Virus genome (UHGV): UHGV-1652557
Length of the DNA stretch: 10,143 bases
Strand: one strand, 5' to 3'
From: a virus
Below are positions 7,535 to 10,143 of this stretch, in pieces. The position numbers and the translations under genes were made by a program. The stretch's first letter is position 1. Every line of letters begins with the position of its first letter. The notes under the pieces are model-generated. The model was not told the origin of the DNA. It was given only the letters and a program-made list of their open reading frames with translations, and ran no database searches.

Positions 7535-7938
7535 GCGAAATTAACTCTCAGGCACTGCGTGAAGCGGCAGAGAAAGCCGGTGAAGATAAGTGGCAGGCTA
7601 AAAAAATAAATGGTGATTTTTTCGTTATTCGTCACGGTAGTTATACAAGACAGCATGGCTACACATCGTATCAACCCATTGCGGAGATTGATTGTAAGCC
7701 AGTCCGGGATTTTGTTGCCAAGGCTAATCCGGCTACCGTGCTGGAATTACTGGATGAACTGGAAGCAGCAAAAAAGCGCATTGCAGAACTGGAAGCGCGG
7801 GAAATACTGCTCCCGGAACGTAGCAGCATGCTTCATCGAACAGATTTTCACGATGATTACCAAACGGTAATGGCATACAAAGTTTCTGAAGTCATCGATG
7901 CAATCCGCGCTACTGGCATTCGCATCAAAGGAGAGTGA
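7531..7938 (+). CDS. Ead/Ea22-like protein
   Basis: 135-aa ORF with a GTG start overlapping the preceding stop (GTGA). Coiled-coil segment PATVLELLDELEAAKKRIAELEA resembles the Ead/Ea22-like family, from memory. Confidence 0.65.
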   Translation: MSEINSQALREAAEKAGEDKWQAKKINGDFFVIRHGSYTRQHGYTSYQPIAEIDCKPVRDFVAKANPATVLELLDELEAAKKRIAELEAREILLPERSSMLHRTDFHDDYQTVMAYKVSEVIDAIRATGIRIKGE

Positions 7939-8705: not shown

Positions 8706-9281
8706 ATGACCACTATTACCAAAGAACGTATTGAATTGTTCATTAAAAATCCGCTTGAAAACGGGCTTACTCGTGGCGAACAAATGGAACTGGCACGAAT
8801 TGCACTGGCATCACTGGGAGCAGAATCTGTAAGCCAAACTTACAACTTGCCAGAATTAATCGAAGGCATGGAGGTTTCCATTGATGTAAGCACTTGTGAT
8901 GCGGATTTAGGTAATCGCTATTTCGGTACCGTCACCGAGGCGTTAGAACTTGATACTGCCAAGAATGGTTACATCCTCCTGGTTCAGGACGCAGAGCCAA
9001 ACTTCGATATAAATGGCAATTCTCCGGTAACTCCGGATGGTTGGGTTATAGTGCCGAAGAAACTAACCGCTGAGAACGGCGCTAAGGGTGTGCTATCCGG
9101 TGAATTTTCAGAAACTACGTTTATAAGCTGCCCGGAATGCTTTGGTGATGATGATTGCGAAACTTGTGACGGCAGCGGAAGAATCGAAATCAAGGTTCCA
9201 GTCAGTTGGACAACTATCAAAACTATTTGGGCTAAAGGGTGTGAGTACTTTTCAATAGTAGCACCGCAGCAAGATGGGTGA
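8706..9281 (+). CDS. Strongly acidic hypothetical protein with a C-terminal zinc-ribbon (CPEC-x6-CETCDGSG)
   Basis: 191-aa ORF, AAGGA RBS 7 nt upstream, 10-bp gap after the preceding gene. About 31 Asp/Glu against 14 Lys/Arg. C-x2-C-x6-C-x2-C-x-G-x-G motif similar to DnaJ-type zinc ribbons. Confidence 0.8.
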   Translation: MTTITKERIELFIKNPLENGLTRGEQMELARIALASLGAESVSQTYNLPELIEGMEVSIDVSTCDADLGNRYFGTVTEALELDTAKNGYILLVQDAEPNFDINGNSPVTPDGWVIVPKKLTAENGAKGVLSGEFSETTFISCPECFGDDDCETCDGSGRIEIKVPVSWTTIKTIWAKGCEYFSIVAPQQDG

Positions 9282-9342
9282 TGAAAACAAGTATTTATAA
9301 CTTAAAAGCATTAAAAAATCGCTTATAGATCAAAAGAAATCT

Positions 9343-9384
9343 ACGTCAAATATTACTATATTTCAATGTGTTATAATTACCCCG
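9343..9384 (+). promoter_or_regulatory. Candidate sigma70 promoter with extended -10 (TGTTATAAT)
   Basis: TGnTATAAT at 9369-9377 in an AT-rich spacer after the stop at 9281. Weak -35 TATTTC at 9349-9354. Confidence 0.4.
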
Positions 9385-9407
9385 TCCATAAAATGGGGGG
9401 ACACAAA

Positions 9408-9650
9408 ATGTTCAAACGCTGCATCACCAAGTGTGGAAGCACACCTGACATCCAAGCTTTTATTAATGAAGATGGTAAGCTTGTTGTTGAGAGGAGTGGT
9501 CCTTTTATTAGCAAACAACTTATCATTACCTCTCCAGCGGAGATGGCCGGGGAATGGATAGTTTCTGAACCAGAGGAGTTGCACATCCCGCTTCCTTATG
9601 GCCCTCAGGGACTGATTTATAACCGTTATGTTCAGAAGGAGGCGGGTTGA
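9408..9650 (+). CDS. Small hypothetical protein (80 aa)
   Basis: ATG at 9408 preceded by a GGGGGG SD-like run (9395-9400) and the candidate promoter. No recognisable family. The antisense 152-aa ORF has junk-like composition. Confidence 0.4.
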   Translation: MFKRCITKCGSTPDIQAFINEDGKLVVERSGPFISKQLIITSPAEMAGEWIVSEPEELHIPLPYGPQGLIYNRYVQKEAG

Positions 9651-9930
9651 CAATGTCAGGCATAACATCGCCGAGAAATCGAAAGAAAAACAGAACAAGG
9701 TAAACGTTGACCTTGCAGCATCAGGCATGGAGTACAGAGAGCGCCTTAACATACCTGTTATCACTGAGCAGGTATCATGAGAGCAACCTGAGCACTCACG
9801 CGAGTATTTCATGGAGCGCATCAGATACTATCACGAGCAGTCGTTAAACATGCCCAAGGGAAGCAACCCATGGTATATCGATATGGATGAACAGAACGCC
9901 AAGAAGTAAACGCAATTTGAACGAATGCGA

Positions 9931-9987
9931 ACCCGCCGAGTGCGGGTTTTCTTTTATCTGAACTCGCTACGGCGAGTTTTGTTTTAT
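9931..9987 (+). terminator. Tandem rho-independent terminators closing the leftward (PL) transcription unit
   Basis: T1: ACCCGC (9931-9936) / GCGGGT (9942-9947), then TTTTCTTTTAT. T2: AACTCGC (9961-9967) / GCGAGTT (9972-9978), then TTGTTTTAT. Both are oriented for plus-strand transcription. Confidence 0.78.
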
Positions 9988-10143
9988 GGCGATGATAAAT
10001 GCACTTCCGAGTTACAGGTGAATGGAATGGAGAACCATTCAACAGAGTTATCGAAGCCGAGAACATCAGTAGACTGGCCCCCTGAATCACCAGACAACCA
10101 ATATCACTTATTTAAGTGATAGTCTTAATACTAGTTTTTAGAC

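Follow-up and report, generated by a model that had tools for sequence, protein, structure and literature searches.

How should a short reading frame be understood that is interrupted by a single in-frame TGA, continues beyond it and lies in a module that appears to have its own promoter and terminators? This question is raised by positions 9282 to 9990 of a stretch of 10,143 nucleotides from the UHGV virus genome UHGV-1652557, referred to here as the window. The original prediction, made from the sequence alone, saw a terminal module of small open reading frames (ORFs) that could be a gene decaying through a frameshift and a nonsense mutation, a small toxin-like or regulatory cassette, or a small RNA (sRNA) locus. 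The analysis presented here makes it very likely that the region is a decaying accessory cassette of the moron type, composed of a control region, an intact ORF of 80 amino acids (ORF80), a dead gene for DNA polymerase III subunit theta and two terminators, in the pL arm of a lambdoid prophage. Coordinates are window positions, and all features lie on the + strand unless noted otherwise; L and P numbers denote the DNA loci and the proteins that were compared, respectively. The features at the center of the question are the following:

9408 to 9650, + strand: ORF80, an intact small protein gene (phrog_9613; RefSeq WP_000476264.1, hypothetical protein)
9628 to 9780, + strand: ORF of 50 amino acids, formed by a chance upstream ATG and the N-terminal half of theta up to the nonsense codon; residues 13 to 50 align to theta/HOT
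9637 to 9642, + strand: AGGAGG within the ORF80 3' end, probably the Shine-Dalgarno sequence used by the ancestral theta start, as read from the sequence
9653 to 9909, + strand: theta (HOT-type) pseudogene (PF06440) in its ancestral extent, with a base missing after 9660 and TGA as codon 43
9778 to 9780, + strand: nonsense codon TGA, which arose from CGA (Arg43 in the 85-amino-acid protein); loci L024 and L025 read CGA here

The reading frames described in the original prediction are present: ORF80, the 50-amino-acid ORF in another frame with a 23-nucleotide overlap, the single TGA, the open frame that continues to 9906 and is closed by a TAA at 9907 to 9909, and a 32-amino-acid, ATG-initiated ORF at 9811 to 9909. 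The number of sense codons after the TGA was given as 45, but 9781 to 9906 measure 126 nucleotides, i.e., 42 codons. The statement that none of the ORFs matches a family has to be revised. With the stop read as Arg, the conceptual translation of 9628 to 9909 matches PF06440 at 97.1 bits (E = 5e-28; cutoff, 34.6) over positions 2 to 67 of the 70 positions of the profile, the phage theta family phrog_1105 at E = 1e-31, HOT of phage P1 (PDB 1SE7/2IDO) at E = 7e-29 and E. coli theta at E = 2.5e-15. The translation is nearer to P1 HOT, with 69% amino acid identity across 71 aligned residues (query residues 13 to 83), than to HolE, and since its score against the chromosomal HolE model (NCBIfam NF008207/PRK10969; 87.9 bits) falls below the cutoff of 97, the gene is a phage-type paralogue and not the chromosomal orthologue. 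In E. coli DLI.6n (NZ_CP103974.1, locus L001), which matches the window with 100% identity, the NCBI Prokaryotic Genome Annotation Pipeline (PGAP) labels 9628 to 9909 as "DNA polymerase III subunit theta", pseudo, with an internal stop, and RefSeq likewise annotates theta. The split ORF is a theta pseudogene already annotated by PGAP and belongs to a known phage gene family.

Among 5.8 billion proteins searched, 605 theta homologues were found. Nearly all of the best 120 of these are 85 amino acids long and start with MS(G/D/H)(H/F/W)NIA(A/E)KS, and the repaired 85-amino-acid translation aligns to the family over its full length. The window copy thus reaches the profile score of the family and lacks an uninterrupted ORF of about 76 to 85 codons from its own start; the family phrog_10131 comprises merely the 50-amino-acid fragment. 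As described in PMC2528190, theta binds the N-terminal domain of the epsilon (DnaQ) proofreading subunit and stabilizes it, and P1 Hot does likewise. According to the same source and PMC7556043, P1 Hot can substitute for theta and is expressed both in lysogeny and during lytic growth.

Two lesions separate the window copy from an intact gene. The TGA at 9778 to 9780 aligns with the Arg of the motif A/E-R-E-Q-P-E, which is invariant from E. coli theta to HOT. Two near-identical alleles, L024 (WP_052509999.1, from the draft E. coli genome GCA_000819005.1) and L025 (a Logan contig), with DNA at least 98% identical to the window over the promoter, ORF80, theta and the terminators, read CGA at this position, so that the TGA arose by a C-to-T transition; in intact relatives that are more distant, the Arg43 codon is CGT or AGA. 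The second lesion lies in codon 3. Intact theta genes of E. coli prophages (L008 to L010) begin with ATG TCA GGT CAT AAC ATC GCA (MSGHNI), whereas the window reads ATG TCA GG- CAT AAC ATC GCC from 9653, with one base missing; in the DNA alignment, intact L008 has ATGTCAGGTCATAAC and the window ATGTCAGGCATAAC. In consequence, ATG 9653 now opens an ORF of only 16 codons that ends with TAA. This ATG is preceded by the ORF80 stop (TGA, 9648 to 9650) and the dinucleotide CA, with AGGAGG at 9637 to 9642 upstream, whereas the sequence before ATG 9628 contains no Shine-Dalgarno motif. Since intact relatives have 85 amino acids and start with MSGHNIAE, ATG 9628 is fortuitous.

The order of the two lesions can be read from the Arg alleles. 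L024 and L025 keep Arg43, Val26, Ala27 and Ala42 and share with the window the one-base deletion and the frame initiated at 9628, which is 93 amino acids long in these alleles; the frameshift therefore preceded the nonsense mutation. Intermediate alleles (L016 and L026 to L028) have Met26 (V26M), Glu27 (A27E) and the stop and still carry Ala42; A42S was added in the window and R61H in this strain. Sister copies have received further hits, namely, a TAG at 9781 in L017, a P-to-L change in EQPEH, and a change of ATG 9653 to AGG in L007. The original prediction was thus right about a decaying gene inasmuch as the nonsense mutation in 9628 to 9909 is real; a frameshift exists as well, though not between the 80- and 50-amino-acid ORFs but as the deletion in theta codon 3.

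A single gene split by a frameshift into ORF80 and the 50-amino-acid ORF, as the 23-nucleotide overlap in different frames might suggest, would call for relatives in which the two are fused. Homologues of ORF80 (74 to 79 amino acids) all end at the same point, and members of the theta family begin with the ATG located three bases past the ORF80 stop; these two observations refute a split gene, the probability of which is practically nil. The fused versions that do occur in databases, for which the original prediction had proposed to look, are only deletion variants or artefacts of gene calls made with genetic code 4.

Such calls also affect the theta frame itself. The protein cluster around P0001, an apparent intact match, includes members with Trp at the position of the stop and two genuine Arg alleles. 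P0001 has this Trp, but the corresponding DNA (L007) has TGA, and it was discarded as an intact close relative because it is a genetic-code-4 gene call. Metagenome calls of this kind (L007, 493 to 774; P0001, P0137, P0138 and P0130) read TGA as Trp and mimic intact or fused proteins, and they also run through the ORF80 stop and upstream stops. Proteins with Trp at the stop can therefore mislead.

The pattern of substitutions in the theta region is that of a sequence without constraint. Among 12 alleles, 19 variable sites, counted as sites and not as events on a tree, comprise 3 synonymous, 14 nonsynonymous and 2 nonsense changes, and the neutral expectation is 18.6% synonymous; the two Arg43 alleles differ by 5 changes, all of which are nonsynonymous. 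Of 56 columns with a conservation of at least 95% among 119 intact relatives, 10 are violated by the repaired window protein, compared with a mean of 0.8 and a maximum of 4 for the relatives themselves. Some of the 10 broken columns are shared with the Arg alleles and are lineage features. The neutral pattern, together with the broken conserved columns, indicates that theta has evolved by drift ever since the frameshift, with the TGA as a second hit.

The lineage was found in 90 to 91 of 5426 complete E. coli genomes, including that of E. coli IAI1, and an exact match of the 81-mer with CGA in none of them. All 13 copies from complete genomes that were inspected are annotated as pseudo and retain the TGA, 12 of them as "internal stop" and L017, with its extra TAG at 9781, as "frameshifted". 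The prophages in which the copies reside differ in their recombination and integration modules (lambda Red/ybhC, Rad52-type/sbcB-adjacent and torI-type, i.e., at least three contexts), which indicates that the cassette moves by recombination. With identities of 99% or more among all TGA copies, the spread is recent and carries no information on function. None of the phage genomes of the INPHARED database contains the cassette; only the theta part and the terminators match there, the theta part with 71 to 78% DNA identity to Klebsiella phages, P1 and HK639.

These data also bear on the proposal that the theta homologue is still functional, either as a 93-amino-acid protein made from ATG 9628 by reading UGA as Trp or as a 50-amino-acid fragment that binds epsilon. 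In its favor, no stop codon of E. coli is leakier than UGA, the reading frame is uninterrupted before and after the single TGA, the allele is common (about 90 complete genomes) and spread over prophage backbones, and the 93-amino-acid frame is accepted as a protein in an Arg43 allele. Set against these points, the residue lost to the stop is an Arg conserved without exception from E. coli theta to HOT, the native start no longer shares the theta frame, 9628 lacks a Shine-Dalgarno sequence, substitutions are neutral, sister copies bear the TAG at 9781 and the P-to-L change in EQPEH, and the proteins with Trp at the TGA are genetic-code-4 artefacts. Furthermore, no stable hairpin was found 3' of the TGA (63 nucleotides folded; z = -0.7) and no element resembling a selenocysteine insertion sequence (SECIS). 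A functional theta is consequently considered very unlikely, and the more specific version, in which a truncated theta is kept because the 50-amino-acid product or traces of UGA read-through would engage epsilon, is given a very slim chance.

Programmed recoding was considered and rejected. Selenocysteine incorporation or programmed read-through of the UGA was discarded because there is no structure 3' of the TGA and all intact homologues have Arg there. Inspection of the 16 codons between ATG 9653 and the TAA detected no X XXY YYZ heptamer for a programmed -1 frameshift, and a -1 shift at AAG-AAA-AAC would lose the conserved NIAEKS.

As to how the pseudogene arose, the decaying cassette can be accounted for in two steps. 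The location of ATG 9653 three bases after the ORF80 stop suggests that ancestral theta was translationally coupled to ORF80, with AGGAGG as its Shine-Dalgarno sequence. Loss of a base in codon 3 cut the native start and its likely Shine-Dalgarno sequence off from the theta frame, which ATG 9628 keeps open by chance. In the sublineage of the window, CGA then became TGA at Arg43, and further nonsynonymous changes followed (V26M, A27E, A42S and, in this strain, R61H). No useful theta product would be made from such a sequence.

In contrast to theta, ORF80 is a separate, real gene and not the front half of a frameshifted one, as judged from the sequences of its homologues. Its family is tiny, with 9 to 11 proteins in two large searches, one of which, a full HMMER scan of 1.8 billion representatives, gave 11. 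The homologues, which share 46 to 70% identity and 17 invariant positions, all begin with MF..C, which fixes the start of ORF80 at 9408; their tails vary, and the genes end at the same point in all relatives. The ratio of nonsynonymous to synonymous substitution rates (dN/dS) between ORF80 and the 70%-identical homologue is 0.12 to 0.19. AlphaFold models ORF80 as a small six-stranded beta-barrel (predicted local distance difference test score, pLDDT, 85; predicted template modeling score, pTM, 0.75), for which no match was found in BFVD at E <= 0.001, and neither ORF80 nor the 50-amino-acid fragment has a match in Pfam, NCBIfam or PADLOC. The 52%-identical homologue P0132 (L020 to L023) occupies the same position upstream of xis/int and is followed by a T1-like terminator (see below for T1) and an unrelated gene of 158 amino acids; in L019, an ORF80 homologue and the 158-amino-acid gene are likewise paired, on a short contig that stops before xis/int, and in L011 the 70%-identical homologue is located after replication genes instead of beside xis/int. 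The 158-amino-acid protein (L020, 3284 to 3760; L019, 1163 to 1639) is conserved and has no Pfam match; its gene immediately precedes xis/int in L020 to L023.

A toxin-like, toxin-antitoxin or regulatory cassette, with ORF80 as the effector and the short downstream ORFs as its partner, was among the possibilities raised by the original prediction. The genes are indeed small, they overlap or are coupled, and they have a promoter and terminators of their own; moreover, ORF80 is conserved and matches no family, and a conserved upstream box, described below, suggests regulation. However, the downstream ORFs are fragments of theta and not a conserved partner, distant ORF80 homologues precede a terminator and the unrelated 158-amino-acid gene, the searches of PADLOC, Pfam and NCBIfam mentioned above were negative, and the predicted model, a soluble beta-barrel, has neither a membrane segment nor a match to a toxin fold. 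This proposal is thus regarded as improbable to a high degree.

The region upstream of ORF80 contains the following elements:

9282 to 9407, + strand: AT-rich intergenic spacer and regulatory region upstream of ORF80 (27.5% G+C over 9260 to 9379), which aligns in four lineages
9338 to 9348, + strand: conserved box AATCTACGTCA, a candidate operator or activator site, with a core, CTACGTC, that is invariant in four lineages
9369 to 9377, + strand: predicted extended -10 element TGTTATAAT, the sole TGnTATAAT of the window, kept in relatives
9380 to 9400, + strand: leader hairpin CCCCGT...GGGGGG, with a weak fold (-11.4 kcal/mol; z = -1.45)
9395 to 9400, + strand: G-tract within the leader hairpin and also the Shine-Dalgarno region of ORF80, G5 to G9 in length among copies

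The AT-rich spacer thus agrees with the original prediction. Its claim of a separate promoter stands in part, as a plausible, conserved extended -10 element read from the sequence. Apart from TGTTATAAT, neither strand of the 10-kb window contains an exact TGnTATAAT; 0.28 occurrences are expected from shuffled sequences, and since 48 of 200 shuffles contained at least one, the lone occurrence is not significant by itself. Relatives have TGTTATGAT or TGTTATGCT at this site, and the four lineages conform to TGTTAT(A/G)(A/C)T. A generic scan for -35 and -10 elements called no + strand promoter, which is explained by the absence of a -35 hexamer. A promoter-like site on the minus strand (9366 to 9338) was within chance, with 1 seen and 2.2 expected. 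The spacer shares about 80% identity with that of L011, although synonymous sites of ORF80 are near saturation (proportion of synonymous differences, pS, 0.64 to 0.67).

The box has the consensus A(A/T)(T/C)CTACGTC, and its core is invariant across four lineages with ORF80 proteins of 46 to 70% identity. Copies are located at 9338 to 9348 in the window, 3935 to 3944 in L011, 779 to 788 in L019, and 2911 to 2920 and 2932 to 2941 in L020 to L023; the latter are two exact direct copies 21 nucleotides apart, and L019 has one exact copy and one with the same core. In the window, the center of the box is about 41 nucleotides upstream of the start site deduced from the -10 element, where the -35 hexamer is missing. 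This arrangement suggests that the box is a candidate activator or operator site; we know of no described motif that matches it. The length variation of the poly-G tract at 9395 to 9400 (G5 to G9 in near-identical E. coli copies) may reflect either slipped-strand variation in translation initiation or homopolymer assembly errors.

The cassette ends with two look-alike terminators, as had been predicted:

9929 to 9958, + strand: terminator T1, stem GAACCCGC/GCGGGTTT followed by TCTTTTATCT, from the hairpin scan and RNA folding
9960 to 9987, + strand: terminator T2, a look-alike of T1, stem GAACTCGC/GCGAGTTT followed by TGTTTTAT, from the hairpin scan and RNA folding

The hairpins, at 9929 to 9949 and 9960 to 9979, are each followed by a T-run, consistent with a terminator function, and they are real and widely conserved. 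Three terminator-like sites were detected in the 944 nucleotides scanned, compared with 0.5 +/- 0.7 in shuffled sequences, and the RNA of 9920 to 9990 folds into exactly the T1 and T2 hairpins (-24.3 kcal/mol; z = -3.0). The 46-nucleotide block 9944 to 9989, which includes T2, occurs in 1220 records of E. coli and 75 of phages, among them phage 933W, where a T1 with a different stem and the same tail (T1') and an identical T2 directly follow an accessory gene. In Gifsy-1, the T2 stem shows a compensatory T-A to C-G change and the T1 hairpin also follows a theta remnant; a T1-like hairpin follows ORF74 in L020. T1 and T2 look like a conserved boundary before the small-gene/xis/int block.

Two strong terminators after a stretch without an intact gene could also mark the end of an sRNA locus at 9650 to 9990, another proposal of the original prediction, and a weak match to the Rfam family rsmX was obtained at 9847 to 9982 (24 bits; E = 0.03). 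This match, the only one in Rfam 15 at E <= 1, does not nearly reach the gathering score of 56 bits and spans both terminator hairpins. Moreover, the stretch is fully explained as theta coding sequence, and no promoter-like site was found within 9650 to 9990. An sRNA locus is accordingly judged extremely improbable.

Several points weigh against the interpretation of the region as a decaying cassette with an intact ORF80. The 93-amino-acid frame from ATG 9628 is open in the Arg43 alleles and RefSeq accepts WP_052509999.1 as a protein; the one-base deletion may not be fully inactivating, and WP_052509999.1 (93 amino acids) probably has a non-native start. The substitution counts in theta are small, and the retention of the TGA across backbones, by copies that are at least 99% identical, tells little either way. 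The promoter call is based on sequence and conservation and is not shared by the generic promoter scan. ORF80 is weakly constrained in the recent E. coli clade, with 6 synonymous changes, 7 nonsynonymous changes and 1 stop at 14 sites, and it is broken in L012 by a 2-nucleotide deletion and in L024 by a TAG at codon 58. A separate observation is that decay can be reciprocal, in that theta Arg43 persists in L024, where ORF80 is broken, and ORF80 persists in the window, where theta is lost.

Parallels exist between the window copy of theta and known systems. The closest solved relative is P1 Hot (1SE7; 2IDO with epsilon-186), which has the motifs KVNVDLAASG, ERLNIPVI, REQPE and YFMER in common with the window copy and is likewise a phage-borne extra copy of an accessory subunit of the host replisome. 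P1 Hot is intact with 83 amino acids and resides in P1, whereas the window copy, in a lambdoid early-left arm, has the frameshift at codon 3 and the stop at codon 43. The replacement of theta by Hot and the expression of Hot were reportedly established by Chikova and Schaaper in 2005 and 2007, in whose work Hot is also reported to suppress the temperature-sensitive mutator phenotype of dnaQ49 in a host deleted for holE. Intact 85-amino-acid prophage thetas of E. coli, Citrobacter, Klebsiella and Salmonella (e.g., P0005, P0019 and ARB15606.1 of Klebsiella phage 2b LV-2017) share 67 to 78% identity with the repaired translation and have the N-terminus MSGHNIAEKSKE. They are single small lambdoid accessory genes that usually follow the replication genes in the nin region of the early-right operon, in some cases with a promoter-like leader of their own; the window copy, in contrast, is a pseudogene located behind ORF80 in the early-left arm. 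E. coli HolE (theta, 76 amino acids; 1DU2, 2AE9 and 2AXD) belongs to the same Pfam family and aligns over residues 5 to 68, including the Arg lost to the stop. The Arg43 allele L024 differs from the window in its broken ORF80.

Another example of theta decay in prophages is that of Gifsy-1 and Gifsy-2, where the theta 3' end is 86% identical to that of the window and is followed by the same T1-T2 pair. This remnant, upstream of a dinI homologue in the nin region, results from an internal deletion, unlike the window copy with its point lesions. In Gifsy-1 (L004, about 2440 to 2610; also in Gifsy-2), FNIAAKSQEDRDKVS is joined to YMEMSEQNTKK*, followed by T1-T2, and this remnant is unannotated.

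The concept of the lambdoid "moron", an accessory gene with its own promoter and terminator, is said to go back to Juhala, Hendrix and colleagues. The window cassette is moron-like in that it combines a promoter-like element with one or two small genes and an intrinsic terminator, and a factor-independent terminator is located downstream of its genes. It is also present or absent between adjacent genes, as in 933W the accessory gene runs directly into T1'-T2 and the small gene before xis; the T2 block is found in 1220 E. coli records and the cassette in only about 90 genomes. Unlike in a typical moron, one of the two cargo genes is dead, and expression from the prophage is here a prediction. 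The ORF80 promoter would fire in the lysogen. T1 and T2 would stop transcripts that are not antiterminated, such as those from this promoter, and pL transcripts would, by analogy to lambda, read through; such stops would insulate xis/int.

The order of genes around the cassette shows its location in the prophage. On the + strand, the window contains an S24-type repressor gene, a kil-like gene, gam, bet, exo, small DUF genes, an ea22-like gene, a tRNA-guanine transglycosylase (TGT)-like gene and a 191-amino-acid gene. The order in L001 is cI, gam, bet, exo, ea22-like, ORF80, theta pseudogene, insertion sequence (IS), xis, int and ybhC; an IS3-family element, xis, int and the chromosomal ybhC thus follow 9282 to 9990. 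The window represents the early-left arm (pL direction) of a lambda-like prophage that is integrated beside ybhC in E. coli, and 9282 to 9990 is an accessory moron-type cassette between the ea22-like accessory genes and the small-gene/xis/int block. Two features lie downstream of the terminators:

9999 to 10069, + strand: 5' part of a 55-amino-acid gene that precedes xis/int and is cut by the IS; partial according to PGAP in L001, intact in L005, L006 and L016
10070 to 10143, + strand: left end of an IS3-family (IS2-like) insertion sequence, with an IS3-family transposase downstream in L001

The IS junction at 10070 was found in 1 of the 5426 complete E. coli genomes, that of DLI.6n, and the stretch 10070 to 10143 matches thousands of places across E. 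coli genomes. A minus-strand ORF of 152 amino acids (9363 to 9821) was dismissed as a shadow ORF, as the differences by codon position fit the + strand frame. Upstream of the cassette, the 191-amino-acid ORF (8706 to 9281) contains a DnaJ-type zinc-finger stretch, CPECFGDDDCETCDGSG; PGAP annotates its first 46 codons only, as a partial pseudogene (L001), and the C-terminal part as "molecular chaperone DnaJ" (L006), and it looks like a mosaic gene. The 265-amino-acid protein encoded at 7898 to 8695 matches the queuine tRNA-ribosyltransferase-like PHROG family (5e-104) and has no match in Pfam or NCBIfam; judging from this match, it may be a DpdA-like enzyme that modifies guanine in DNA or tRNA, encoded in the early-left arm.

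The pair of ORFs split by a TGA is an ordinary pseudogene with two hits, and there is consequently no need to chase recoding, a toxin cassette or an sRNA at this locus. The cassette provides a compact example of the erosion of prophage cargo, in which a frameshift was followed by nonsense and missense mutations, with ORF80 intact here and dead in a sister lineage. Should a theta fragment that engages epsilon nevertheless be made, the prophage would tune the fidelity of host replication in lysogens. Furthermore, ORF80 and the upstream box form a small uncharacterized family that is located beside xis/int in most of the prophages in which it was found and could merit a look; with the invariant CTACGTC box beside xis/int, ORF80 could be an undescribed regulator expressed in lysogeny.

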